NCBI GenBank assembly: GCA_963709045.1 | Contig: CAVPUX010000003.1 | Coordinates: forward strand, 8,065 to 72,064 | Source of the DNA: an uncultured Acidobacteriaceae bacterium | GTDB lineage: Bacteria > Acidobacteriota > Terriglobia > Terriglobales > Acidobacteriaceae | Direction of reading: 5' to 3' | DNA length: 64,000 nt | Shown here: positions 10,592 through 58,456 of the stretch, in pieces | Numbering within the stretch: position 1 is the stretch's first letter | Layout of the letters: each line of letters begins with the position of its first letter | Notes under the pieces: generated by a model | What the model was told of the DNA's origin: nothing | What the model saw: only the letters and a program-made list of their open reading frames with translations | Databases searched by the model: none | Program-made: the position numbers and the translations under genes

Positions 10592-10627
10592 GAAGAGCGA
10601 AAAGCGAAAGGCCAAGAGCGAAGAGCG
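10592..10627. repeat. GCGAA-type heptad array (unpaired)
   Basis: gaagagc gaaaagc gaaaggc caagagc gaagagc, 35 nt upstream of the MFS start. Confidence 0.7.
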
Positions 10628-10661: not shown

Positions 10662-11888
10662 ATGTCTGCCAAGACAAACGCCTGGGCCGCTCTACTGCTG
10701 CTGACGGCCCTGAACTTTCTCAACTACATCGATCGCAATGTCCTTTTTGCGGTACAACCATTGATCCAAAAAGAATTCCGGCTCAGCGACGAGCAGGTGG
10801 GCTTTTTGACCTCGGCATTTTTTGTCTGCTACATGATTGCCGCGCCCCTAATCGTGCCCCTGGCTGATCGCTTCCCGCGCCGGCGAATCATGGCGGCCGG
10901 CGCTTTCGTCTGGAGCCTGGCGACATTACTAAGCGCAGTCACGCACAATTACGACGAACTCTTACTGCGTCACGTTATCGTCGGCATCGGGGAAGCGACC
11001 TTCGTTGCCATTTCGCCGGCTTTCCTCTCCGATCTTTTTCCCGAGGCCGTACGCGGGAGGATCATGGGGCTTTTTTATCTGGCGACGCCGGTAGGTAGTG
11101 CGTTGGGTTATCTGGTCGGCGGTTTCCTCGGAAACCGCTACGGCTGGCGCGCTCCGTTCCTGGTTTCGGCGCTACCCGGATTCCTGTTGGCTTTGGGCGT
11201 CCTCGCATTGCGTGAACCCGTGCGCGGCGCCAGTGATCACTTGGCAGACAGCCTTGAGCGCGGTTCCATGCGCGGACTGTTGCGCAACCGGGCCTTTTGG
11301 ACCATCAGCCTCGGTGCGGCCATGATGACCTTCGCCATTGGCGGTCTGCAGGTGTGGATGCCCACGTTCTTGACCCGTATCCGCCATGTGCCGCTGGATC
11401 GAGCTAATATTTCTTTCGGCGGCATGACCGTAGTCGCGGGCACCGTGGCTACCTTGCTAGGTGGGTGGCTGGGGGACCGCTTGCTACGGCGCACGCCAGC
11501 GGCCTACCAACTCATCTCAGCGATCGGAATGACGCTATCGATTCCGGCAATCGCCGTGGCCATCTACTTCACGGGACCGGCGATGTATCCGGCGATTTTT
11601 CTCGGTGAATTTTTCCTTCTGCTGAATACCGCTCCACTCAATGCCGCCCTGGTGAACTCGGTAAGCGCCCGCATTCGCGCCACAGCGCTCGCGGTGAACA
11701 TATTCGTCATCCACCTGCTGGGTGACGCATTTTCGCCCACTCTTATTGGCTATATCTCAGACAGGACCAATCTTCAGATAGGACTGATGTCAATGATCGT
11801 CGCGGTTGCGCTTTCGGCGGCGGTGTTGTTCTACGGAATGCGATTTGCGCCGAAGATTGGCGGCGAGCAATTAGCGATTAGCAATTAG
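10662..11888 (+). CDS. MFS transporter
   Basis: Met95 of track ORF 10380-11888 begins MSAKTNAWAALLLLTALNFLNYIDRNVL, followed by 12 predicted TM segments and an LADRFPRRR loop motif. The upstream extension reads through a heptad repeat (SEKRKAKSEER), so I treat it as non-coding. Confidence 0.85.
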   Translation: MSAKTNAWAALLLLTALNFLNYIDRNVLFAVQPLIQKEFRLSDEQVGFLTSAFFVCYMIAAPLIVPLADRFPRRRIMAAGAFVWSLATLLSAVTHNYDELLLRHVIVGIGEATFVAISPAFLSDLFPEAVRGRIMGLFYLATPVGSALGYLVGGFLGNRYGWRAPFLVSALPGFLLALGVLALREPVRGASDHLADSLERGSMRGLLRNRAFWTISLGAAMMTFAIGGLQVWMPTFLTRIRHVPLDRANISFGGMTVVAGTVATLLGGWLGDRLLRRTPAAYQLISAIGMTLSIPAIAVAIYFTGPAMYPAIFLGEFFLLLNTAPLNAALVNSVSARIRATALAVNIFVIHLLGDAFSPTLIGYISDRTNLQIGLMSMIVAVALSAAVLFYGMRFAPKIGGEQLAISN

Positions 11889-11912
11889 TAATAGCACCTA
11901 GCAACATGGCCA
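11871..11912. repeat. TTAGC-type heptad array overlapping the MFS stop codon
   Basis: ttagcga ttagcaa ttagtaa tagcacc tagcaac. Confidence 0.6.
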
Positions 11913-37357: not shown

Positions 37358-37363
37358 GAGCAA

Positions 37364-37419
37364 TTAGCAGTTAGCTCTTAGCTGTTAGCAATTAGCTCTT
37401 AGCCGTTAGCTTTTAGCCT
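37364..37419. repeat. eight tandem TTAGCNN heptads (unpaired array)
   Basis: ttagcag ttagctc ttagctg ttagcaa ttagctc ttagccg ttagctt ttagcct in exact 7-nt register. Confidence 0.9.
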
Positions 37420-37568
37420 TAACGATTGGCGCTCATCGATGAAGGGCGCGGCGTTCGGGCGGCGGTGTCGGAGCTCTATATTTTTGTCATCACGAACAGG
37501 CTTTAGGCGGTGAGGGATCTGTTCTTCTGATTTTTCTGCGGGCTTGCTTTGAACGAAACTGCCAGTAG

Positions 37569-46553: not shown

Positions 46554-46602
46554 TTGAGGGCCGATGGTGGCCGGATCTACTTCGCCCTCAGGAGAAATTG
46601 CT

Positions 46603-47775
46603 ATGCAAACGGAAGTCCCGGTTCGAGCTCACGACCACGCGGTAACCCGCAAACTGCAATGGCTGGCTTTGTCGTTGACTCCCGGCGTAGGTGCGGGACG
46701 CGGACGCAAGTTGGTGGAAATGTACGACAGCATAGAGCGAGTGTTCGCCGCGTCCCTAACGGAACTGGAAGCGGCTGGGCTGCCGGCGGCGTCCGCGCAG
46801 AGTCTGGCGCTGGGTAAGTCGATGGAACTGGCGAGTGCCGAACTTGACCACGCCCGGGAATTGGGTGCCCAGGTGATCGTCCCGGGGGATGCAGAGTACC
46901 CGCGACGGCTGCTGGAAATTTATGATCCGCCACTCGTGCTTTACCTCAAAGGTAATGCAGAAATCATTGATAAAGCAGGGATTGCGGTGGTCGGCACCAG
47001 GCATCCGACGCCCTACGGAACGGGCATGGCCGAGCGCCTGGCCTGCGACCTTGCGGCCCGTGGGCTCATCATATTTAGTGGGATGGCACGCGGAGTAGAC
47101 ACCGCAGCCCACCGCGGGGCCTTGCAGGCGCACGGTCATACGGTCGCGATCTGGGGTACCGGAATTGACGTTGTCTATCCAGCGGAAAATCGGAAACTCA
47201 CCGACCAGATCCTGGCGTCGGATGGCGCGGTTTTGAGCGAGTTCCCCTTAGGGACTTTTCCAGCGCCACAGAATTTTCCCATTCGCAATCGGCTGATCAG
47301 CGGCATCTCGATCGGCGTTCTGGTGCTTGAGGCCGGTGAGTTCAGCGGAACCCGAGTAACGGCGCGCTGTGCCCTGGAGCAGGGACGCGAGGTCTTCGCG
47401 GTGCCGGGGAACGTGACCAATAAGCTCTCCTGGGGGCCTAACACACTGATTAAACAGGGTGCGGCTTTGGTTGCCACATGGGAAGATGTGTGGGAGGCGC
47501 TTCCCGCCGATGTGCGCCTGGTGCTCAATCCACGGGCGGCGGCTGCATCGGAAGAGGCGGCTGCGTCATCACTGTTTGAGACGGCCCAGTTGCCGCCGAA
47601 CGAGAAAAGGGTTTATGCCCTGATGCGAGCGGATGAATCGATCCATATCGACCAACTGGTCGAGCGCCTGACTTCGTACCTTTCGTCGTCCGAGATTTTC
47701 AGCGCGTTGTTCGAGTTGGAACTGAGCGGCCGTATCCGGCAGATGCCCGGAAAATATTTTGTGAGGACGATGTGA
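46603..47775 (+). CDS. dprA: DNA-processing protein DprA (Smf)
   Basis: AGGAG RBS plus ATG at 46603. ...YP..L..I.DPP.VLY.KG......IAVVGTRHPTPYG......LA..L...G..I.SGMARGVD..AH.GAL....TVA..G.G.D..YP.EN. Confidence 0.9.
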   Translation: MQTEVPVRAHDHAVTRKLQWLALSLTPGVGAGRGRKLVEMYDSIERVFAASLTELEAAGLPAASAQSLALGKSMELASAELDHARELGAQVIVPGDAEYPRRLLEIYDPPLVLYLKGNAEIIDKAGIAVVGTRHPTPYGTGMAERLACDLAARGLIIFSGMARGVDTAAHRGALQAHGHTVAIWGTGIDVVYPAENRKLTDQILASDGAVLSEFPLGTFPAPQNFPIRNRLISGISIGVLVLEAGEFSGTRVTARCALEQGREVFAVPGNVTNKLSWGPNTLIKQGAALVATWEDVWEALPADVRLVLNPRAAAASEEAAASSLFETAQLPPNEKRVYALMRADESIHIDQLVERLTSYLSSSEIFSALFELELSGRIRQMPGKYFVRTM

Positions 47776-47783
47776 CGGCGCGG

Positions 47784-47818
47784 TAGCGCTATTCGCCTTT
47801 CGCTCTTCGCTTTTCGCT
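47784..47818. repeat. TTCGC-type heptad array, left arm of the hairpin enclosing the four-helix-bundle pseudogene
   Basis: tagcgct attcgcc tttcgct cttcgct tttcgct. Positions 47794-47810 (CGCCTTTCGCTCTTCGC) are the perfect complement of 48282-48298. Confidence 0.85.
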
Positions 47819-47866
47819 AAGGCCGGAGAGATCGGTTCGCAGTTCGCTTTTTAGCTGGGGTAAGAA

Positions 47867-48222
47867 ATGGGGGGCGTCCTGAGGAATTACGAGGACTTGG
47901 AGGTTTGGGAACAAGGCCCACGCGCTCACGATCAAAATCTATCGTGCGACCGAACGTTTCCCCGATCGGAAATGTTTGGACTGAGCAGTCAAATTCGTAG
48001 GGCAGCAGCTCGATTGGTGCAAATTTGGCGGAGGGATGCGGTCGCTGGGGCGATGGGGAAATGGCCCGCTACGTGCAGATTGCCAGCGGATCTGCGAGTG
48101 AATTGCAAAATCGTTTGAGGTTGGCCAAAGATTTGGCGTTGCTAAGCGCGGCCGAAACATGCCGATCTGCTGAGAGACTTAACGAGCATTCGGCAAATGC
48201 TGACCGCATTTTCAACGCATGA
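47867..48222 (+). pseudogene. four-helix-bundle protein gene (23S rRNA intervening-sequence / Avd-like family), three frameshifts
   Basis: Stitching three frames gives NYEDLEVWEQ / KAHALTIKIYRATERFP / RSEMFGLSSQIRRAA / SSIGANLAEGCGRWGDGEMARYVQIASGSASELQNRLRLAKDLALLS.... This matches the family pattern (F.DL.VWQ.A..L...IY..T..FP..E.YGL.SQ.RRAA.SI..NIAEG.GR....E....L.IA.GS..EL.TQL.LA). Confidence 0.8.
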
Positions 48223-48260
48223 GGCTTCGAGCCGCCCCAGTATCGGCGTCGAAAGCTCTG

Positions 48261-48298
48261 GCGAAAAGCGAATAGCGAATAGCGAAGAGCGAAAGGCG
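48261..48298. repeat. GCGAA-type heptad array, right arm of the same hairpin
   Basis: gcgaaaa gcgaata gcgaata gcgaaga gcgaaag gcg. Confidence 0.85.
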
Positions 48299-48361
48299 CC
48301 CTCACCTTTGCCGCCAGTGGGCGGCCCGTGCTAGCTTCGTAGTAACAAGATTGAGGTTCCA

Positions 48362-50902
48362 TTGTCAAAAGGTTTAGTCATCGTCGAATCGCCCGCTAAA
48401 GCGAAGACGATCCAAAAATATCTGGGCTCGGGCTACGAGGTGGAAGCCTCGCTCGGACATATCAAGGACTTGCCCAAGAAGTCGCTCGGCGTCGATCTTG
48501 ACGATAATTTCGCCACCGAGTACGTCGTTATTCCGGGCAAGGAGAAGGTCGTCGCCCGCCTGAAGAAGCTGGCGAAGTCGGCGGATACCATTTATCTGGC
48601 CCCTGACCCGGACCGCGAAGGCGAAGCCATTGCCGCCCACCTCGCCGAAGAACTCGGCGGCGATTCGGTTGACGGGAAGCGGAAGGGCAAGAAGGGCGCG
48701 GTCACCATCCGCCGCGTCACCTTTAACGAAATTACCAAGCGCGCGGTGCAGGAGGCATTCCTCCACCCGCGCGACATCGATTCCAACCTGGTGGACGCGC
48801 AGCAGACTCGCCGTGTGCTGGACCGGTTGGTGGGGTACCAGGTCTCACCGTTGTTGTGGGACAAGGTGCGTCGCGGAATATCTGCCGGCCGTGTCCAGAC
48901 CGTGGCCTTACGTCTGATTGTCGAGCGCGAGCGCGAGATCAAGGCCTTCGTCAAGGAAGAGTATTGGACGATCGACGCTCATCTGCATGCCGACAAGCCG
49001 CCGACGTTTGCAGCGCGGTTCATCGGGATTGGCGACGAGAAGACCCCAATCACGAATGGCGACGATGCGGCCAAAATCAAAGCTGCGGTCGAGACTGCCG
49101 CTTGGAGTGTTCGCTCGGTTGACAAGCGCGAGCGCCGCCGCAGTCCGGCAGCGCCGTTTACCACCAGCAAGTTCCAGCAGGATGCATCACGCAAGCTGCG
49201 TTTCAGCGTCAAGCGCGCCATGATGATCGCTCAGCGCCTGTATGAAGGCGTTGATCTCGGCGAGGAAGGTACTGTCGGACTCATCACGTACATGCGTACC
49301 GACTCTCCGCAGGTGTCAAACGACGCCGTCGCTGAGGTGCGGGAGCTGATCGGCAAGGAGTACGGCAAGGAGTTTCTGCCCGAGGCGCCGAACACCTACA
49401 AGTCGAAGAAGAGCGCGCAGGAGGCGCACGAAGCCATTCGTCCGACGGCTGCGTCGCGGCATCCGGACCAGATCAAGCGGTATCTCCAGGAAGACGAGTA
49501 CAAAGTTTACAAGCTGATCTGGCAGCGTTTTGTGGCCTCGCAGATGAACCCCGCGGTCTTCGACCAGACGACCGTGGAGATCGACGCCAAGAACGGCAAT
49601 GACGTGTACCGCTTCCGCGTGACGGGCTCGGTGCTCAAGTTCGAAGGCTTCCTGAAGGTTTACGAAGAGTCCAAGGATTCTAAGGACGAAGAAGACGAGG
49701 CGCTCAAACACAAGCTGCCGGTTCTGACTGAAGGCCAGAAGCTCGCGCTGAAGGGAATTGATAACGAACAGCACTTTACGGAGCCTCCACCGCGCTTCAA
49801 CGAAGCCTCGCTGGTGAAGGAACTGGAAGAGCGCGGGATCGGGCGGCCCTCGACCTACGCCGCCATTATCAGCACCATCCAGGAGCGGCAGTACGTGCAG
49901 AAACTCGGAGGGAAGTTTATTCCCACCGAAATTGGCTTTGTGGTGACCGACCTGCTCGTCGCGAACTTCAAAGACATCTTCGATCTGCAATACACCGCGC
50001 GGTTGGAAGAGGAGCTCGACGAGATCGAGGACGGCAAGGAGCGTTGGACCGACGCCCTGGCCGAGTTCTACAAGAAGTTCGAGAAGGAACTCCATTACGC
50101 TGAGAAGCACATGGAGAACGTGAAGCGGATGGAGAAGCCGACCGACGAGAAGTGCGAACGGTGCGGCTCGCCGCTGGTCATCAAGTGGGGCAAGCATGGC
50201 TCGTTTTATGCGTGCAGCGCCTACGACAAGACTGACCCGAACAGTTGCACGTTCACCAAGGAAAACCCTATCGATCTGCCTGACCTGGACTCGGCCGACG
50301 TGCAGGAAACCACGCAGGAGGAGTATTGCGAAAACTGCGGCCGTCCGATGGTGCTGAAGCGCGGACGCTTCGGGCAATTCATGGCTTGCACCGGTTATCC
50401 GGATTGCAAGACCACACGCCGGCTGGACCAGGCCAAGAAAGTCCCGGACATCCCGCTTGACGAAAAGTGCCCGCAATGTGGACGGAACCTGCTGCTGCGG
50501 CATGGCCGCTATGGCGAGTTCATCTCGTGTAGCGGTTATCCGGAATGCAAGTGGGTGAAGCAAAACTACATCGGGGTGAAGTGTCCGGAGTGCAAGGACG
50601 GTGAGTTGGCGGAGAAGAAGGCTCGCCGCGGCAATTTCTTCTACGGCTGTTCCAACTACCCGAAGTGCCGATTCACCTCGGCCTACAAACCGGTTGCCGA
50701 GCCCTGTCCCGAGTGTGGCAGCCCATACCTGCTGGAGAAGAACCTCAAGTCCGGCAGCTTCCTGGTATGTCCCAACAACAAACGGACCGAAAGCGAAGAA
50801 CCAAAGACTGCCGCAAAGGGCCGTGGAAAGAAGAAATCCGCGGATGAAACTACGGTTAAATGTGACTACTCGCGGGAAATCCAGCCGGTAGCTGTTGCAT
50901 AA
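48362..50902 (+). CDS. topA: DNA topoisomerase I
   Basis: 846 aa with a TTG start. Toprim LVIVESPAKAKTIQKYLG, DPDREGEAIA, active-site region YMRTDS, and multiple C-terminal C4 zinc ribbons (CERCGSP...CSAY, CENCGRP...CTGYPDC, and others). Confidence 0.97.
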   Translation: MSKGLVIVESPAKAKTIQKYLGSGYEVEASLGHIKDLPKKSLGVDLDDNFATEYVVIPGKEKVVARLKKLAKSADTIYLAPDPDREGEAIAAHLAEELGGDSVDGKRKGKKGAVTIRRVTFNEITKRAVQEAFLHPRDIDSNLVDAQQTRRVLDRLVGYQVSPLLWDKVRRGISAGRVQTVALRLIVEREREIKAFVKEEYWTIDAHLHADKPPTFAARFIGIGDEKTPITNGDDAAKIKAAVETAAWSVRSVDKRERRRSPAAPFTTSKFQQDASRKLRFSVKRAMMIAQRLYEGVDLGEEGTVGLITYMRTDSPQVSNDAVAEVRELIGKEYGKEFLPEAPNTYKSKKSAQEAHEAIRPTAASRHPDQIKRYLQEDEYKVYKLIWQRFVASQMNPAVFDQTTVEIDAKNGNDVYRFRVTGSVLKFEGFLKVYEESKDSKDEEDEALKHKLPVLTEGQKLALKGIDNEQHFTEPPPRFNEASLVKELEERGIGRPSTYAAIISTIQERQYVQKLGGKFIPTEIGFVVTDLLVANFKDIFDLQYTARLEEELDEIEDGKERWTDALAEFYKKFEKELHYAEKHMENVKRMEKPTDEKCERCGSPLVIKWGKHGSFYACSAYDKTDPNSCTFTKENPIDLPDLDSADVQETTQEEYCENCGRPMVLKRGRFGQFMACTGYPDCKTTRRLDQAKKVPDIPLDEKCPQCGRNLLLRHGRYGEFISCSGYPECKWVKQNYIGVKCPECKDGELAEKKARRGNFFYGCSNYPKCRFTSAYKPVAEPCPECGSPYLLEKNLKSGSFLVCPNNKRTESEEPKTAAKGRGKKKSADETTVKCDYSREIQPVAVA

Positions 50903-50967
50903 TAGAAGTCTTGTCAATCCAACCCGCCCGGCCATCAGCCGGGCATTCCTGTGAAAAGGAGCAAATC

Positions 50968-51435
50968 ATGGCAGGACAACTGAAAAGCGGGACACTCATT
51001 GCCCACCTGATCGTTAATGACGCCCCGAAGGCTTTGGACTTCTACAAGAACGCATTTGGAGCAGAGATCCTGGGTGTGCACAAGACGCCCGACGGAAAGG
51101 TAATGCATGCGGAGCTGAGTTTTGGGGGCGCCAGGCTCATGTTGGCGGACGAGTTTCCCGGCATGGGCGCTGGTTCACCCAAGACGCTGGGTGGAAGCGC
51201 GGTCGTGCTGAACCTTTATGTTCCGGAAGATGTTGACAGCTTGTTCAAGCAGGCGGTGGCAGCAGGAGCTACGGTAGTGATGCCCCTGGCAGACCAGTTC
51301 TGGGGCGACCGCTACGGCCAGGTCACAGACCCCTTTGGGCATCGCTGGGCCCTCGGCCAACACATGGAAGACGTTGCCCCCGACGAGATGGAGCGTCGCG
51401 CTAAAGAGGCCTTCGCCGCGATGGCGCACAAGTAG
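50968..51435 (+). CDS. VOC-family (glyoxalase/bleomycin-resistance fold, PhnB-like) protein
   Basis: AAAGGAG RBS plus ATG at 50968. ...HLIVNDAPKALDFYKNAFGAE......HAEL.FGGARLMLADEFP...FWGDRYGQVTDPFGHRW. Confidence 0.8.
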   Translation: MAGQLKSGTLIAHLIVNDAPKALDFYKNAFGAEILGVHKTPDGKVMHAELSFGGARLMLADEFPGMGAGSPKTLGGSAVVLNLYVPEDVDSLFKQAVAAGATVVMPLADQFWGDRYGQVTDPFGHRWALGQHMEDVAPDEMERRAKEAFAAMAHK

Positions 51436-51528
51436 CCCTTCTGAAGCCGCGCCGCCGAAGCAATCATCCAACCCAAATGAAAAGCCGTCAGCACGGCGGC
51501 TTTTCCTAACCTACTTCCTGGAGGATTC

Positions 51529-51972
51529 ATGAGCAGTACACCCGCGACACATCATGATGCTGAACTTATCCTGAAGCTTTACGAACTACGCCGTGAACCG
51601 GTAATGCGCGAAGCCCGGAATTTTGTAGCTGGCTTCAGCCCCAAGTCGGTCGACGACATGCTCGCCGTGGCGAATGCGTTTGGCACCAAGGAAAATGCCT
51701 ATGTCCGTCAGGTATTCGGCTACTGGGAAATGGTTGCCTCGCTGATCGTGCATGGCACTCTAAACGCGTTGCTGGCGTATGACACGCTCAGCGAAATGTA
51801 CTTCGTATATGCCAAGATACAGCCTCTCGTGGAAGAGTTCCGGCAGAAGTCAGGGATGGTGGAATTCCAGGTGAATGTGCAGAAGGTGGTGGAGAGCTCA
51901 GCCGAAGGCCGGGACCGACTGGCGCGGATGCGAAAGCGCCAGGCGGAGATGGCGGCAGCCGCCGCGCGATAA
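51529..51972 (+). CDS. hypothetical protein
   Basis: 147-aa helical protein with a GGAGGA RBS. No family recognised. Confidence 0.65.
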   Translation: MSSTPATHHDAELILKLYELRREPVMREARNFVAGFSPKSVDDMLAVANAFGTKENAYVRQVFGYWEMVASLIVHGTLNALLAYDTLSEMYFVYAKIQPLVEEFRQKSGMVEFQVNVQKVVESSAEGRDRLARMRKRQAEMAAAAAR

Positions 51973-51977
51973 CCCAC

Positions 51978-52823
51978 TTAGCTCAGATATTCGCGAATGT
52001 AGGGATCGTTGTTGCGTAACAGATCGGCAACGGTCCCTTCGAAGATGATCTTTCCATCCCGCAGCATGAGGAACCGCGTGTGCAGGTCGCGGACGCTCCC
52101 GTCGCCGATCGGCATCATTTTGTTCTGCTGCCGGTCGAAATAATGGCTCGCCATGGTGAACGCGTCTTGCAGCCGGTGCGTCACCAGCAAGGAGCTTGTC
52201 CCATACACGTCGCGCTGTTTCACGATGAGCTCGATGATGGTGTTCGAGGTCACCGGGTCGAGGCCGCCGGTAGGTGAATCGTAAAGGATGACCTCCGGCT
52301 GCGTAATGATGGCGCGCGCAATGGCCACGCGGCGCCGCATACCTCCGGACAGCTCGGACGGGAACAGATCGACGGTGTGCTCCAGTTCGACGAAGCGCAA
52401 GGCCTCCAGCACGCGCTGATGGATTTCGACCGTCAGCTTTCCCGTCTCCTCCATCAGGCGATAGGCGACATTCCCTTCCACGGTCAAAGAATCGAAGAGC
52501 GCGCTCTCCTGAAAGACCATTCCGATCTTGCGCCGCAAGTCGAACAGGTCTTCCTCGCGCATCTGCGTAATCTCTTCGCCAAGAACGATGATGCGCCCCG
52601 CGTCAGGCTTCAATAACCCGAGCGCCATTTTCAGGATCAAGGTTTTGCCGGTACCGGCCACCCCCATCAGGATCTTGGTTTCACCTCGGGGCAATTCAAA
52701 GGAAACACCCTCCAGCACTGGGTGATCGAAAGCGATCTCAACATTTTCGAAGCGAATGACGGGCTCGACCGTGGGCGGGGCGGTGGGTTGGCGCTGTTCG
52801 GCCGGCGGTGCGAGGCTCGACAT
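51978..52823 (-). CDS. ABC transporter ATP-binding protein (MlaF-like)
   Basis: Walker A GVAGTGKT, signature LSGGMRRRVAIARA, Walker B VILYDSPTGGLD. Confidence 0.9.
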   Translation of the reverse strand: MSSLAPPAEQRQPTAPPTVEPVIRFENVEIAFDHPVLEGVSFELPRGETKILMGVAGTGKTLILKMALGLLKPDAGRIIVLGEEITQMREEDLFDLRRKIGMVFQESALFDSLTVEGNVAYRLMEETGKLTVEIHQRVLEALRFVELEHTVDLFPSELSGGMRRRVAIARAIITQPEVILYDSPTGGLDPVTSNTIIELIVKQRDVYGTSSLLVTHRLQDAFTMASHYFDRQQNKMMPIGDGSVRDLHTRFLMLRDGKIIFEGTVADLLRNNDPYIREYLS

Positions 52824-52825
52824 AG

Positions 52826-53605
52826 TTAGTACTGGAAGATGCCCATAAGCAAGCGGGTAATGAAAAAATCGCTGACCAAGATCAGGACCGACGCGGCCAC
52901 CACGGCCTGCGTCGTAGCTCGTCCGACACCTTGCGTGCCCCCCTTGGCGGCGAGGCCGTAGTAACAGCCAATGGTGGAGATAATAAAGCCGAAGATCACC
53001 GGCTTACACAGTCCCATGAATACGTCTCCGAAGCGCAGCGCCTGGTAAGCCGTGGTCCAATACTGGTTGGGGTCGAGTCCCAGCAGCACATACGAGATCA
53101 CGAATCCCCCCGTCAATCCCACCAGGTTGGAGATGATGGCGAGAAAGAACAGCATCACCATGCTGGCAATGACCCGTGGCGTTACCAGTTTCTTGGACGG
53201 ATCGACTCCCATGGCGCGCATGGCATCGATCTGCTCGGTGACCTTCATGGAGCCCAGTTCGCTCGCCATGCCGCTGGAATTGCGGCCGGCTACCATCAGT
53301 CCCGTCAGCACCGGTCCCAGTTCGCGCACCATCGACAGCGAAACCAGTTTGCCGGTCAGCGACAACGAACCAAACTGCTGCAAGGTGCTGGAGGTCTGCA
53401 GGGCCAGCACCGCGCCGGTAAAGAAGCCGGTCAGCACCACGATGGGCAGGGAGCCGACGCCGATGGAATCGGCCTGCAACAGGGTATCGGCATAGTACCG
53501 GGGATGCCCGAAAACATTGCTGAGCGAGCGCCCGGCAAGCAGGGAATAATCCTGCACCGCCTCGACATTTTCCTTCGCAATTTCGATCGGCGAGAAAGTT
53601 GGCAT
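52826..53605 (-). CDS. MlaE-family ABC transporter permease
   Basis: Met48 of track ORF gives 259 aa. ...GVGSLPIVVLTGFFTGAVLALQ...LGPVLTGLMVAGR.SSGMASELGSMKVTEQIDAMRAMGVDP. Confidence 0.85.
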   Translation of the reverse strand: MPTFSPIEIAKENVEAVQDYSLLAGRSLSNVFGHPRYYADTLLQADSIGVGSLPIVVLTGFFTGAVLALQTSSTLQQFGSLSLTGKLVSLSMVRELGPVLTGLMVAGRNSSGMASELGSMKVTEQIDAMRAMGVDPSKKLVTPRVIASMVMLFFLAIISNLVGLTGGFVISYVLLGLDPNQYWTTAYQALRFGDVFMGLCKPVIFGFIISTIGCYYGLAAKGGTQGVGRATTQAVVAASVLILVSDFFITRLLMGIFQY

Positions 53606-53836
53606 CAGGTTCCGGAAAAGAGATACGAACGAAAATATATCAGAGGAACATGAATTGGCCCCGGTTTCGAATTCAGTACCTACCCCGCCAGGAGTCTGTT
53701 CGGCGAGAAACGAAGGCCCCGATCTCCTCGACATCACTGCCGCCAACGGCGGACTTGATCCGACCCTTTGCTTGCGGGCGCGGCTTCATTTACCATGCAA
53801 TGCCTAGCTATTGCCCGGCACGCCAGGAGGCGGAGT

Positions 53837-54232
53837 ATGGCGTTTCAGGTCGATCGTAGTCCGTTCGATCCGGAATCAGGATTCGAGTATTACATTTGCT
53901 TCAAACCTCCGACCGAGGTCGAGGGCGACGAAGTAGAGTCACGCATCTCTGTCGAGGCGGCGCTCTCCGTCTCGGAAACCGGCGATGTGGCTGACCTCAG
54001 CTTTATGCTGCCCAAGATGTGCCGTAACGATCATGCCCTTTCGTTCCTGAAGCGCGATCCGACCGCAGCCTGCGTCGAGAACCGGGTGTTTATCGCCGTA
54101 CCGGGTCTGAATGGCGATGCAGTGTTCAGCGCTCCGGCAACGCTCGAACTGGACCACGCCGGACGCATCGTAGCCATCGAAATCAACGGCTGCATTCCCA
54201 AGACCAGCACATTTAGACCGGGGCACGCGTAA
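53837..54232 (+). CDS. hypothetical protein
   Basis: AGGAGG RBS 6 nt before the ATG at 53837. 131 aa; no family recognised. Confidence 0.6.
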   Translation: MAFQVDRSPFDPESGFEYYICFKPPTEVEGDEVESRISVEAALSVSETGDVADLSFMLPKMCRNDHALSFLKRDPTAACVENRVFIAVPGLNGDAVFSAPATLELDHAGRIVAIEINGCIPKTSTFRPGHA

Positions 54233-54239
54233 AGGCCGC

Positions 54240-54426
54240 CGTTCGCTTTTCGCTCTCGCTTTTCGATTGCTATTCGAAGTCTGCGGCGAACCAGAACTGG
54301 CCTTAGAGCTGCGTGACAACATCCGCCACCACGTCGGCTTGGCTCATCGGTCGCCATTCTGGTGAGAGCCAAGAGCGAACAGCGAAGAGCCAAGAGCGAA
54401 GAGCGAAGAGCGAATGGCGAATAGCA
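54240..54426. repeat. heptad-periodic hairpin (TTCGC-type left arm 54240-54286, GCGAA-type right arm 54366-54426), no gene in the ~80-nt loop
   Basis: Left arm: gttcgct tttcgct ctcgctt ttcgatt gctattc. Right arm: gagccaa gagcgaa cagcgaa gagccaa gagcgaa gagcgaa gagcgaa tggcgaa tagcaga (9 units). Confidence 0.85.
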
Positions 54427-54447
54427 GAACTCCGGTATGATGTCGGC

Positions 54448-55071
54448 GTGGACGATGTAACGGCATTTATCCTGGCAGGCGGCCGCAGCACCCGCATGGG
54501 CAGTGACAAGGCATTGCTGTCGCTCGGCGGTCAGACGCTGTTGGAGCGCGCCTTGCAGACCGCCGGGACCGTCGCGAAAACGGTGTTTATCGCCGGCCCG
54601 CGCGAACGGTACGGGCGGTACGGCGAGGTAGTCGAGGATGTTATTCGCGATTGCGGTCCGCTGGGCGGAATCCACGCCGCCCTGTGTGTCACGAAGACCG
54701 ACCTGAACCTCATGCTTTCCGTGGACACGCCGCTGATGAGTTCGGATTTTCTGGCGTGGCTGCTGGAACAGGCACGTGCGAGCCGTGAGTTGGTCGTGGT
54801 TCCCGAGGCGCTGGGAGGGCTGCAACCGCTGGCCGCGGTGTACCGTCGTGCGTTGCGGGCCGTGGCCGAACAGGCGCTGAAAAGCGGTGACTATAAAATC
54901 GACCACTTGTTCCGGCTCGCGCCGACGCGCTACATTTCTGAAGCTGAAATCGTGGCGGCTGGTTTCTCGCTGGCGGTATTTCGCAATGTGAACACTTTCG
55001 AAGAATATAAGGACTTGCTGCAGACCGAAGACGCCTTGCAAGTGAAAGGGACAGAGAGCCACGGCACATGA
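54448..55071 (+). CDS. mobA: molybdenum cofactor guanylyltransferase
   Basis: In-frame GTG at 54448 gives VDDVTAFILAGGRSTRMGSDKALL...GPLGGIHAAL...LSVDTP. The longer track ORF reads through the heptad array. Confidence 0.8.
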   Translation: MDDVTAFILAGGRSTRMGSDKALLSLGGQTLLERALQTAGTVAKTVFIAGPRERYGRYGEVVEDVIRDCGPLGGIHAALCVTKTDLNLMLSVDTPLMSSDFLAWLLEQARASRELVVVPEALGGLQPLAAVYRRALRAVAEQALKSGDYKIDHLFRLAPTRYISEAEIVAAGFSLAVFRNVNTFEEYKDLLQTEDALQVKGTESHGT

Positions 55072-55865
55072 ACGAGCGAAAGCCCTACATCGAGTTTCAG
55101 GATGTACGCAAGGCATTCGGCAGCAATGTCGTGCTCGACGGCGTCAGTTTCGACGTCATGCCCGGCGAGACGGTCTGCATCCTGGGACGAAGCGGGGTAG
55201 GCAAGTCGGTTTCGCTTCACGAGATTATGGGCTTTCTCAAGCCTGACAGCGGACGCGTCTGGGTCGCCTACGAAGACATCACCGACTATGGCGAGCAGGA
55301 CCTGGAGCGCATCCGCAAGAAAGTGACCATGGTTTTCCAGAACGGTGCGCTCTTCGATTCGCTGACCATCGGCGAAAACGTTGCGTTTCCGCTGCGCGAG
55401 CGCGGCGGTCTCCAAGAGGAGCAGATCTACCAGATCATCGACGGCTTGCTGGACATGGTGGGCGTGCGGGAATTTCGCGACTTGCTGCCCTCCGACTTGT
55501 CCACCGGGATGAAGCGTTCCGTGGCCATTGCCCGCGCCTTGGCGGCGCAGCCGGACGCCGTGCTCTACGATGAGCCGACCACTATGGTCGATCCGTTAAT
55601 GGCGCACCTGCTGGGAGACTTGATCAAGAAGCTGAAGAAGCAATTGAAACTGACCAGCATCGTGGTGACGCACGACATGGCTTTGGCCAAGAAGCTGGCC
55701 GACCGACTGCTATTTCTACACGAGGCGCGTGCCATCTTCTTTGGGACGTTTGCGGAAATGGCGCTTTGCAAGGAACCCATCGTGCAGGAATTCCTGGAGC
55801 TTGACTCGATGGATTTCGAGCGCTACTTCGGCGCGCGGCGTCCGGCGCACGAGCCGCGGGTGTAA
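55068..55865 (+). CDS. ABC transporter ATP-binding protein (second MlaF-like ATPase)
   Basis: Walker A GRSGVGKS, signature LSTGMKRSVAIARA, Walker B VLYDEPTTMVD. ATGA overlap with the mobA stop. Confidence 0.9.
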   Translation: MNERKPYIEFQDVRKAFGSNVVLDGVSFDVMPGETVCILGRSGVGKSVSLHEIMGFLKPDSGRVWVAYEDITDYGEQDLERIRKKVTMVFQNGALFDSLTIGENVAFPLRERGGLQEEQIYQIIDGLLDMVGVREFRDLLPSDLSTGMKRSVAIARALAAQPDAVLYDEPTTMVDPLMAHLLGDLIKKLKKQLKLTSIVVTHDMALAKKLADRLLFLHEARAIFFGTFAEMALCKEPIVQEFLELDSMDFERYFGARRPAHEPRV

Positions 55866-55891
55866 GGGCGACTGTCGAAGGTCTGCATGAG

Positions 55892-56317
55892 GTGTGGGTG
55901 GCTGTTTATTTTATTTTCGTCGGAGTTGGCCTAGCCGCGGATGCCGCTGCGGTCCTCTGGGCATCGTACAGAGAAAAAATCGTCTCCTTGAGCACGGTGG
56001 ATATGGTTGCACCTTTCACGTTGTCGATCATGGCGACCCTTCTAGTACTGTTTGGCTCTGTAGGGATCGTGCGGAACTTGAGCCTGCGATCGCGTTTGTG
56101 GCTGGCCCTATCGTGTGGTGCATTCTTTTTGGCTGTGCCACTCCTAATGAGTGCCGCCGGTGCCGGGATGAATGTCCACGGCTGGACCTTTTACATGGTC
56201 TGGCCGACGATGCAAAGCCTCTTCGTCATGTTAGTTTCTCTGCTTTCAGTTTTGATTTCAGCGATTCGAAAGCGATTGCCTGTAGACGCCGAGCGGGTCG
56301 AGCGCAATAGCGGGTAG
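55892..56317 (+). CDS. hypothetical 4-TM membrane protein
   Basis: GTG-initiated 141-aa ORF with four hydrophobic segments. The competing ORF 55894-56310 is Arg/Cys-rich and unlikely to be coding. Confidence 0.5.
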   Translation: MWVAVYFIFVGVGLAADAAAVLWASYREKIVSLSTVDMVAPFTLSIMATLLVLFGSVGIVRNLSLRSRLWLALSCGAFFLAVPLLMSAAGAGMNVHGWTFYMVWPTMQSLFVMLVSLLSVLISAIRKRLPVDAERVERNSG

Positions 56318-56374
56318 CCTCGTCACGGCGATTCCGATGACGGGACAGGGCTGACGAACGCCTCGCAAAGAGTT

Positions 56375-57020
56375 CTAAAACCCTTGCGCAACCAAGCGCT
56401 CTACCGTGAGCGCGCCACTTTGCTCATCGCGGCGGGTCCACTTCTCCAGATACTTGGCGACGATGTCGGTCTCGATATTCACCGGATCGCCGGGCTTCAG
56501 CGAACCCAGGTTGGTCATCTTCACCGTGTGCGGGATGATGGCGATGGTCAGGCGCAGTCCTTCCAGCTTTGCCACGGTGAGGCTGATGCCTTCGATGGCG
56601 ATCGATCCCTTGAACACCACATACTTCTCAAGATCTTCTGGGATGTCGAGCAGTAGCCAGAAGTCGTCCGCATTGGCAATCGGTTCCAAGCCGACGAAGC
56701 GGCCTGTGCCGTCCACGTGTCCCTGCACCATGTGGCCGCCCATGCGGCCATCTGCTTTCAGCGGCAGCTCCAAGTTGACCAGAGCGCCCTGGGTGATGCG
56801 GGAAAGCGACGTGAGCCGCCAGGTTTCGGCGGCCAGGTCGGCGCAGAAGGATTGCGGTGTGATATCGAGCGCGGTCAGGCAGACGCCGCTGACGGCGACG
56901 CTGTTGCCTTCGCGCAACTCTTTTGCTGTGTTGGGAGCGTTGATGGTGATGCGGTGATTGCCGCCACGTTCGACAATGCGTCGCAATGGTTCCGACTTCT
57001 TCTACGAGTCCAGTAAACAT
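56375..57020 (-). CDS. ribE: riboflavin synthase; apparent frameshift after codon ~13
   Basis: ATG at 57020 encodes the invariant N-terminus MFTGLVEEVGTI and then goes out of frame. The rest (RRIVERGGNHRITINAP...GNSVAVSGVCLTAL...GGHMVQGHVDGTG...KGSIAIEGISLTV) is in the frame of track ORF 56375-56986. The junction is around 56980-56986. Confidence 0.85.
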
Positions 57021-57038
57021 GATGATGACCTCAAGAAA

Positions 57039-57218
57039 CGCTGTTCGCTATTCGCCTTTCGCCCTTAGCTTTCAGCCGTCAGCTCTCAGCTAAAGCTTAC
57101 CAACCCCAAATGAACTGCGCATTATCGATGCCTGTCACAACTGTTAACTGAATGCTGACAACTAATGGCTGAAAGCTTAAGCGAAAAGCGAAAAGCGAAA
57201 AGCCAACAGCGAACAGCG
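57039..57218. repeat. heptad-periodic long hairpin between ribD and ribE, no gene in the ~90-nt loop
   Basis: Left arm: cgctgttcgctattcgcctttcgcccttagctttcagcc. Right arm: ggctgaaagcttaagcgaaaagcgaaaagcgaaaagccaacagcgaacagcg. The ends are perfect complements (57039-57049 vs 57208-57218; gctttcagcc vs ggctgaaagc). The arms differ by two heptads. Confidence 0.9.
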
Positions 57219-57223
57219 ACCTC

Positions 57224-58456
57224 TTACGTCTCCTGCACCAGTTGAAGGTTATCCTCGTACGGATCGCGCAGGTAACCTTCCACGGCGAAGTCTTCGCCGA
57301 AGCGGTGCAGCACCAGCGATTTCACATAGGCCGCCTCGCTGATACGACGATATCCCGCGCCCAGGGCAAACGGCACAGAGCCGGTGCCGGCAAGAATCTT
57401 GGGAGCGTAATAAAAGAAAATCTTGTCCACAACACCCGCCGACAAAGCCGCCCAGTTCACCATGGCGCCGCCTTCGATAATCAGGCTGGTGATTTCGCGC
57501 TCGCCGAGGTTCGCTAACACTCCGTCGAGATCGGGACGGCCATCCGCTCCGGGCACGCTGCCAGGAAAGGGAATAGTACCGTCTTCCACGGGACGGCGCA
57601 TGGGGACCTGCTCTACCAATACGCCACGCGCTTCCAGTTCACGCCGCTTATTTTCTTCGGCAAAGCAGCAGTAGACGATGAGATCTTCCCGCGCCGTCTT
57701 GACCACGCGCGAGTCGAGTGGCAAACGCAGGCGCGAGTCGAGGATCACGCGCAGCAGCGGCCTGCGGCGGAGAAGCGCAGTGCGGTCGGTGAGCAGTGGA
57801 TCGTCGGCGATGATGGTGCCCACTCCGACCATGATGGCATCGTTGGTGTGCCGCAACTCCTGCACATGGGCCCGCGCTTCCTCGCTGGTGATCCAGCCAC
57901 CGCTCGCAGTCAGCGATCTCAGAGCGTCCTGCGTTGTGCCTTCTCCTGGAGGCGGGGCAATCTTGCCGTCGAGCGTCATCGCCGTCTTCAGGGTGACAAA
58001 CGGAATCTTATGACGGATATATTTCGCAAAGGACTCGTTCAGCTTCTTCGCTTCAATCTCTCCCAGGCCTTCCTGCACGTCGATTCCGGCGTCGCGCAAG
58101 CGGGCGAGTCCTTGTCCCGCAACCGCCGGGTTGGGATCGCGCATGGCGACGAAGACGCGCTTCACGCCAGCGGCAATGATGGCATCAGCGCACGGACCGG
58201 TGCGTCCCACATGAGAACAGGGTTCGAGGTTGATATAGAGCGTGGCGCCACGGCTGCGATCGCCACCGGCCTCAAGGGCCAGAATTTCCGCATGTTTGCG
58301 GCCCTCGTAGGTGTGCGTACCGCGGCCGGCGATCTTCCCCTTGGCATCGACCAGGACCGCGCCAACACACGGGTTGGGAGAAGCCAGAGCGATGCCTTTG
58401 CGGGCGAGCTCCAGCGCTTGCTGAATGAACTGCTCGTCGGTTGAGGCCTTACTCAT
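57224..58456 (-). CDS. ribD: bifunctional diaminohydroxyphosphoribosylaminopyrimidine deaminase / 5-amino-6-(5-phosphoribosylamino)uracil reductase
   Basis: Deaminase zinc motifs HAEILAL and LEPCSHVGRTGPC, with a C-terminal reductase domain (VTLKTAMTLDGKIA...IIEGGA). Confidence 0.95.
   Translation of the reverse strand: MSKASTDEQFIQQALELARKGIALASPNPCVGAVLVDAKGKIAGRGTHTYEGRKHAEILALEAGGDRSRGATLYINLEPCSHVGRTGPCADAIIAAGVKRVFVAMRDPNPAVAGQGLARLRDAGIDVQEGLGEIEAKKLNESFAKYIRHKIPFVTLKTAMTLDGKIAPPPGEGTTQDALRSLTASGGWITSEEARAHVQELRHTNDAIMVGVGTIIADDPLLTDRTALLRRRPLLRVILDSRLRLPLDSRVVKTAREDLIVYCCFAEENKRRELEARGVLVEQVPMRRPVEDGTIPFPGSVPGADGRPDLDGVLANLGEREITSLIIEGGAMVNWAALSAGVVDKIFFYYAPKILAGTGSVPFALGAGYRRISEAAYVKSLVLHRFGEDFAVEGYLRDPYEDNLQLVQET

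Follow-up and report, generated by a model that had tools for sequence, protein, structure and literature searches.

A decayed four-helix-bundle gene within a heptad-armed hairpin between dprA and topA: a candidate self-reading cassette in Acidobacteriaceae

What is a dead gene doing inside a long hairpin between dprA and topA? The question is raised by a stretch of 64,000 nt, hereafter the window, from an uncultured Acidobacteriaceae bacterium (GCA_963709045.1, contig CAVPUX010000003.1, positions 8,065 to 72,064 of the forward strand), in which the two genes are separated by a spacer of 586 nt. This spacer holds the remains of a four-helix-bundle (4HB) gene of the S23p family (PF05635/TIGR02436), enclosed by inverted arrays of 7-nt units. 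To our knowledge, the thousands of members of this family have no known role outside diversity-generating retroelements, and we know of no explanation, in about 30 years, for either the heptanucleotide repeats of bacteria or the intervening sequences (IVSs) of their ribosomal RNA (rRNA). The locus and its relatives tie all three together. We give somewhat better than even chances, from sequence comparison and homology, to the reading that the spacer carries the dead copy of an IVS-type hairpin cassette whose pentameric protein would read its own heptads.

The left (5′) arm, at 47787-47819 on the plus strand, comprises ~4.6 TTCGCNN heptads as called by tandem-repeat finding at period 7, and the right (3′) arm, at 48261-48298 on the same strand, ~5 GCGAANN heptads (period 7, 92% matches), with inverted repeats I1 and I2 covering it. 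In their best inverted register, 47794-47819 against 48273-48298, the arms are 96% complementary over 26 nt. A decayed 4HB gene between such arrays had been proposed from the letters of the DNA alone (the sequence-only reading), and profile matches and repeat finding confirm it; the 17-nt perfect complement noted at the time is contained in the 26-nt match. Consistent with the hairpin then drawn, the arms pair in the minimum-free-energy RNA fold of the spacer (z = -2.7, single-strand fold).

The gene itself (47867-48276, plus strand) is recognized by PF05635 in two frames, with pieces in three. Its N-terminal fragment, 47867-48118, matches profile positions 1-40 (E 1.1e-5, 26.1 bits), and its C-terminal fragment, 48025-48222, positions 47-101 (E 1e-8, 35.7 bits, over the cut-off of 33.8). 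The three frameshifts first counted prove too few. Alignment to intact orthologues reveals a lost start codon (ancestral TTG, now CTG), four single-base indels near 47912, 47957, 48005 and 48152, and a 5-nt deletion near 48213, for a total of at least five indels, and the ancestral reading frame terminated within the right arm. To these is added a leader insert of ~35 nt (47822-47860, plus strand), which is covered by repeat family D1, carries extra TTCGC units at 47836-47851, and is specific to this genome, being missing from the orthologous cassettes of G013, G008, G024 and G002 (G000 denotes this genome, with an assembly of 4.95 Mb; other G numbers denote relatives).

A protein residue and a heptad base

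Is this arrangement peculiar to one spacer? All five PF05635 loci of the genome, four of them intact, lie between inverted heptad arrays, and the heptad differs from locus to locus: TCAGTTG, GGCATTT/TAGCATT, GGGGTTA/GGGGCTA, TAGTGGA and TTCGCNN. Arms are found at 30 of the 32 further PF05635 loci of the genus, for 125 of 161 unique proteins from ~20 phyla including archaea, and at 62 of 79 loci in an independent metagenome sample, which amounts to ~78% of the ~240 loci pooled from many phyla. For arm scores, a fixed threshold (score >=12, lag-7 identity >=0.55) was adopted because loci share heptads, which inflates a null built by pairing flanks across loci. Thus, the gene-in-hairpin family suspected in the sequence-only reading is a true one, and the complementarity of the arms holds in every relative, though the heptad itself varies among them.

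By its sequence, the cassette so delimited is a 4HB gene of ~400 nt with an array of 4-5 cognate heptads on either side, the two arrays being inverted relative to each other. Arms have a median length of 30 nt (4.3 units), and the median inter-arm distance is 420 nt, as against 443-453 nt at dprA-topA here. The 5′ arm ends ~31 nt before the start of the profile match and the 3′ arm begins ~20 nt past its end, often holding the stop codon. Intact dprA-topA orthologues score 115-121 bits with PF05635, and that of G013 reaches 114.7 bits with TIGR02436 against a cut-off of 24. Where the neighbouring genes run in one direction, the cassette gene follows them in 60 cases and runs against them in 8, which points to expression on host read-through transcripts.

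Individual cassettes depart from this norm or embellish it. Many of their open reading frames (ORFs) end in the 3′ arm, where the heptads code for the last residues and the stop (QLTTDN and stop from CAACTGA units; LADS and stop from GCTGA units). In an Acidobacteriaceae metagenome-assembled genome (L110) the arms have period 8 (AGCGAGTC), not 7, and in a Planctomycetota metagenome-assembled genome (L126) they are giant, ~245 nt each, with an alignment score of 159.5.

Phased on their best-conserved G, taken as p3, the heptads read N-A-G-p4-N-N-N on the 5′ arm and its complement on the 3′ arm, with A at p2 in 154 of 187. In the 5′-arm consensus of the cross-phylum set, 44 cassettes have AG without CT and 2 have CT without AG; the element being a palindrome, this polarity is identical on both strands. 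None of the 48 gene-less hairpins of the genome, described below, has reversed polarity; read from their listed sequences, AG stands to CT as 25 to 12, with TTCGC-type arms making up the CT-only cases.

The proteins in turn share an invariant motif, N-I/L-A-E-G-X-G-R, whose residue X covaries with p4. Among 630 pairs (126 protein columns x 5 heptad positions), X-p4 ranks first, with a corrected mutual information of 0.75 bit (z ~16), X attaining only 0.09-0.19 with p1, p5, p6 and p7; the next-best columns, 56, 58 and 62, adjoin X. On a tree built without the X column, 12 of the 23 changes of p4 fall on branches where X changes, compared to 3.5 expected (p = 8e-6), and in seven separate lineages the loss of Q coincided with T→G. 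The initial data served to fix a rule (Q→T, C→C, H→G, W→G, S→A, A→A), which was then right for 30 and wrong for 7 out-of-sample cases from the metagenome set, whose median identity to the training proteins is 61%. Pooled, the pairings are Q→T in 65/73, C→C in 24/28, H→G in 13/19, W→G in 7/9 and R→G in 5/5. The dead local element fits the same scheme, having TTCGC-class arms (p3 G, p4 C) and a remnant motif AEGCGR.

This one genome contains cassettes of the Q, C and H types together, the Q-type gene at C2:18033 and the H-type gene at C2:409325 among them, and five of five follow the rule. Since mixed types obey it side by side, the constraint on p4 is encoded by the cassette, not by the host, and the cassette encodes this protein only. 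As such, the gene is probably not the passive cargo for which the sequence-only reading took it; the covariation makes it look more like a reader of the arms. What is new here is the fixed arm polarity N-A-G-p4-NNN together with the rule that X predicts p4. The rule is concrete and falsifiable: one residue predicts one base.

A structural model of a paralogue (pLDDT 90.9) has four helices; in it, X lies at one tip of the bundle, where helix 2 ends and the helix 2-3 loop begins. The best fold matches, 2GSC, 2RLD and 4DWL, have five chains each, and TM-scores against Avd are 0.70-0.71 over the query length and 0.84-0.87 over the target length. In 8UB7/8UBE the Avd pentamer is bound to RNA, all five protomers gripping an RNA stem-loop, and flipped-out RNA bases of this retroelement ribonucleoprotein lie in crevices where they are read by the same residues of different Avd protomers (10.1101/2023.10.23.563531). 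The five protomers of the solved relatives match the ~4-5 units of the arms.

From the covariation and the homology, we infer that the protein would be a ring pentamer like its solved relatives and would read its own heptads with one protomer per unit. The cassette would be transcribed with the host operon, as the orientation bias suggests, and its arms would form a predicted stem of ~30 bp in the read-through transcript, a putative substrate of RNase III by analogy with the Coxiella IVS. On the N-A-G-p4 units of arm or stem, the pentamer may tune pairing, processing or its own expression, and it may act in trans on dozens of gene-less hairpins of equal p4 class. In this genome the TTCGC-class reader would be dead, with arms still 96% complementary, and another C-type reader would remain, the genome having a second C-type cassette gene at C2:412448. 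Extended to the whole family, the proposal is evenly poised: PF05635 pentamers may constitute a large family of modular 7-nt repeat readers, in which the A-E-G..G-R tip would read A-G and X would set the next base (Q for T/U, C for C, and H, W or R for G).

Should the residue-to-base rule hold, these rings would make up a new class of proteins that read repeats; it would also point to a hidden level at which operons are punctuated or regulated, and to a means by which a small gene can spread and persist with no transposase. On the family-wide reading, each cassette would be a self-recognising module of gene plus binding site, whose protein would also govern dozens of gene-less hairpins in host operons, including ribosomal-protein operons and rRNA. 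The rRNA IVSs, along with the heptanucleotide repeats of bacteria and archaea, would thereby be explained.

Several observations weigh against this account. The covariation is correlational and partly phylogenetic; p7 also co-changes with X above expectation (12 vs 5.0); and proteins with Y, K or A at X are ambiguous for p4. About 20% of family members have no detectable heptad arms. Conversely, arrays of TCAGC and GAGTTTC heptads are plentiful in this genome with no cognate cassette; if A-G-p4 is decisive, the C- and Q-type proteins of this genome could still read these orphans. The local copy being a pseudogene, nothing at the locus can act as a reader. Lastly, selection on RNA pairing should make G:U outnumber A:C among mismatches, yet on the sense strand the arms show no G:U excess, either in the genus (33 vs 48) or in 125 cassettes (109 vs 142). 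Selection on RNA pairing is thus invisible, and the complementarity may be kept at the DNA level.

History of the dprA-topA junction

How did the element come to lie where it does? The junction is delimited by dprA (46564-47775, plus strand; PF02481 at 2.6e-74 and a DprA winged-helix domain), a conserved left flank across 40 relatives, and by topA (48362-50902, plus strand; PF01131 at 2.2e-131, with Toprim and zinc-ribbon domains). In the sister family it is empty in 15 of 15 genomes, whose spacers of 29-234 nt contain no 4HB gene. In the genus, 22 of 25 genomes have the cassette at this site, 15 copies being intact and 7, including that of this genome, frameshifted or stopped. The cassette of G017 is half-deleted, and those of G021 and G022 are down to a mini-hairpin that retains the right arm. 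Among intact dprA-topA copies, dN/dS is 0.06-0.22. These comparisons show that the cassette entered the junction within the genus, that purifying selection maintains it in most species, and that the cassette decays to frameshifted copies, as here, or to gene-less mini-hairpins. The frequent loss of the gene that the sequence-only reading had supposed is thereby borne out at this site.

Three types of cassette occupy the junction, with TTCGC, TCAGC or TTAGC arms and with a protein type of their own, at ~50-55% mutual identity. On the tree of the flanks the types are unclustered (8 changes vs a shuffled mean of 7.9), and well-supported sister species carry differing types. Between such sisters, sliding identity is 85-100% in the flanks and falls to 40-60% exactly between the outer arm ends; G003 and G022 have flanks 98-100% identical, and one has a full cassette where the other has a mini-hairpin. 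Because the types are scattered over the tree and identity drops at the arms, the alignments show that at exactly dprA-topA whole cassettes, together with their arms, have been replaced by heterologous types. By the same alignments, the sites are constant and the elements within them turn over as units.

A TTCGC-type cassette is also found at a different locus in G003, with 76% protein identity to the dprA-topA ones, and the counterpart of that locus in this genome is a gene-less CAGTTGT hairpin. The possible mobility raised in the sequence-only reading is supported to the extent that the element turns over as a unit and one cassette type recurs at another locus. Composite arms, with outer TTCGC and inner TCAGC units, occur in G011; together with a nested hairpin of the window (57039-57218), they suggest insertion into an older hairpin.

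The element encodes the 4HB protein and no transposase. Outside the arms of 123 cassettes, the longest direct match averages 3.98 nt against a null of 3.73 nt, which leaves no sign of a target-site duplication. No reverse transcriptase is over cut-off (PF00078) anywhere in the genome, and none lies near the cassette. As a guess, cassettes may move by host repair at hairpins or by copying between arm-sharing sites, which would suit their sharp edges, their nested arms and the absence of a transposase. Outside the window, at C15:10900-11384, adjacent frames contain two fragments below threshold (25 and 22 bits), the genome's only reverse transcriptase-like matches and probably a decayed retroelement.

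Could movement then be the whole of the matter? In a DNA-level foldback mobile element, the arrays, on DNA either double-stranded or in hairpin form, would be inverted protein-binding ends that the pentamer joins, and hairpin-break repair by the host or template switching would copy the cassette between arm-sharing sites. Such an element needs no transposase, and it would account for whole-unit replacement that stops sharply at the arms, for unrelated elements occupying one and the same site, and for nested or composite arms. The arms themselves also speak for it, their mismatch spectrum being symmetric and the order of their unit variants mirrored in register (mean z 1.16, p = 1e-10, in 64 testable cassettes against unit-shuffled arrays). 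They are thus true mirror copies, beyond two arrays of one heptad; the mirroring agrees with one arm having been copied from the other at the DNA level, or with the palindrome having arisen recently, and is compatible with an RNA function too. Yet the protein has no catalytic domain, target-site duplications are lacking, the sole homologue of known ligand binds RNA, and the strong transcriptional co-orientation is left unexplained. We consider this alternative unlikely. The conservation of AG in the left and right arms (0.90 vs 0.84) was not used, the difference being small and biased by the derivation of the consensus.

At the other extreme lies a purely RNA-level element, whose arms would serve solely as an RNase III stem excising the insert from transcripts and whose protein would be unrelated to them. 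This alternative gains from the RNase III excision demonstrated for the Coxiella IVS, from the predicted fold in which the arms pair, and from the co-orientation of the genes with host operons (60 vs 8). It founders on the absence of a G:U over A:C excess in 125 stems, on a p4 that tracks a protein residue while several p4 classes share one host, and on a fixed 5′ NAG polarity that a plain stem does not need; we hold it to be quite improbable.

Gene-less hairpins of the genome

Heptad arrays extend well beyond the cassettes. The genome has 499, of which ~7 heptad families account for most, and 61 have an inverted partner within <=2 kb, compared with 2 in reversed-only and 6 in complement-only controls. 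In the distribution of array lengths, a plateau at 3-4.5 units is followed by a steep fall at 5 units and beyond, a decay that is non-geometric. Loop lengths are bimodal: ~44 hairpins have loops of 25-150 nt, and the class of 411-528 nt consists of exactly the five gene cassettes. In all, 48 hairpins are gene-less, as against 5 cassettes. Two further candidates were rejected. Apparent other cargo, in 'loops' of 1-1.5 kb, turned out to be ordinary genes between separate arrays, and a role of the heptads as stop codons in all frames was dropped, many heptads having no stop.

The three gene-less hairpins listed for the window in the sequence-only reading are all present, and none is assigned a strand. 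One, at 54240-54426, is of the TTCGC/GCGAA class and lies upstream of mobA; another, at 57039-57218, is composite, its inner TTAGC/TCAGC units being nested, as read from the sequence, within outer TTCGC ones; the last, at 2801-2975, pairs TCAGCNN/CCATCAG on its left with GCTAANN on its right. Tandem-repeat finding picked up all three. That such hairpins are what remains after loss of the gene is right for dprA-topA, but not every one is a recent loss: the hairpin at 54240-54426 occupies its orthologous spacer in 10 or more relatives, with the gene in none of them.

Their number, 48 to 5, and their long persistence at orthologous spacers favour another alternative, as does their location at gene junctions, including within operons: host structures of the repetitive extragenic palindromic (REP) type, acting as terminators, insulators or mRNA stabilisers, with the 4HB gene as a hitch-hiker. 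Against this stand the tie between heptad classes and protein clades across phyla, the 411-528-nt loops that always hold a 4HB gene and no other, and the sister family without the element at dprA-topA; moreover, no T run follows the stems, and the single terminator-like site in the region is outside the arms. We regard such host structures as very unlikely. That the arrays are chance, or slippage microsatellites beside a pseudogene, is refuted by counts and is close to impossible: slippage can generate short tandem repeats and copy number varies among relatives, but 61 inverted pairings face 2-6 in controls, the build is common to 5/5 loci here and to ~78% across phyla, seven heptad families cover most of the 499 arrays, and array lengths are not geometric, with their plateau at 3-4.5 units.

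Known systems and neighbouring features

The closest parallel is provided by the IVSs of 23S rRNA. That of Coxiella burnetii, in 23S helix 45, has GACAGAT heptamers, a terminal stem of 28 bp, and is excised by RNase III (PMC4990558). The likeness to an IVS drawn in the sequence-only reading is therefore apt, tandem heptamers preceding an S23p gene in the Coxiella element as well. More broadly, the IVSs of Coxiella and Leptospira and those with Xanthomonas-type S23p share with the present cassettes an S23p/PF05635 gene in the loop of a ~28-30-bp terminal inverted-repeat stem, with tandem heptamers preceding its start codon; in both, the ORF undergoes reductive decay and the elements occur sporadically at fixed sites (PMC4990558). 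Unlike an IVS, which sits in helix 25 or 45 of 23S rRNA, the dprA-topA element lies between protein-coding genes. Being outside rRNA, it fails the defining feature of an IVS despite the shared build, and RNase III cutting, demonstrated for the IVS, is here only suggested by analogy.

Avd (4DWL, 8UB7/8UBE) has the fold and the family in common with the cassette protein, and its pentamer grips an RNA stem-loop. It differs in that the Avd model NF033474 scores 24-27 bits here against a cut-off of 80, and the dprA-topA element has no nearby reverse transcriptase and no template and variable repeats. A functional likeness, and only that, is offered by rings of the TRAP type, which bind tandem (G/U)AG RNA repeats with spacers through 11 subunits at a period of 5-6 nt. 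In both cases a homo-oligomeric ring, predicted here, would face N-A-G-containing tandem repeats with variable spacers, and binding of the 5′ segment could compete with a downstream stem. The fold is unrelated, and here the period is 7 and the expected number of subunits 5.

REPIN-RAYT systems and STRR heptanucleotide repeats resemble the present family in being dispersed intergenic palindromic repeats accompanied by a single-copy gene flanked by its own repeats. The dprA-topA cassette, by contrast, has no HUH/Y1 transposase, and its arrays are made of 7-nt units and are not a fixed palindrome. By sequence criteria, the element is neither a retroelement Avd nor a REPIN-RAYT system. It likewise differs from a classical transposon, miniature inverted-repeat transposable element (MITE) or foldback element, the family having no target-site duplication and no encoded transposase. 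Cyanobacteria and Beggiatoaceae have abundant heptamers of unexplained function, TAACTGA among them (PMC4679880), to be compared with CAACTGA here, and that paper does not mention the 4HB gene. In the literature searched, family-wide heptad arms, their polarity, the residue-base link and the gene-less copies are not described; the heptamer papers (PMC4679880, PMC4692102) and the S23p literature make no connection between the two, save for the heptamers in the Coxiella IVS.

Just outside the cassette, at 48310-48341 on the plus strand, a small GC hairpin (GCCGCC-AGTG-GGCGGC) is followed by a conserved GTGCTAGCTTCGTA box. Hairpin and box (GTGCTAGCTTC(A/G)TA) are kept immediately upstream of topA in all genomes of the genus, with any cassette type, and they are likely to be the topA promoter region; a promoter consensus scan gave no site in it. 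In many relatives the hairpin reads GTTTCGCC-N-GGCGAAAC and resembles a relic TTCGC/GCGAA mini-hairpin. Rfam returned nothing relevant over 47000-58000, with a single match at chance level, and the PADLOC defence-system library zero matches.

Heptad arrays recur in other settings. The window has further ones at 37359-37421, 10592-10627 and 11866-11904, of the TTAGCNN, GAAGAGC and AGCAATT types. Outside it, at least seven heptad hairpins of several classes are spread over 10 kb at G000:C2:1262120-1272218, a stretch with a ribosomal-protein L14-like gene and apparently a ribosomal-protein operon. At G000:C5:522667-524065, long arrays flank an ordinary gene and include one of the GGGGCTA/GGGTCAG type with dozens of units and an open frame on one strand. 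Back in the window, the convergent spacer 55866-56375, between a gene ending at 55865 and a minus-strand gene at 56375-56986, measures 15-1750 nt in relatives. It contains at 55892-56317 an ORF of 141 aa that is specific to this genome and has no NCBIfam match, and it may be another insertion hot spot.

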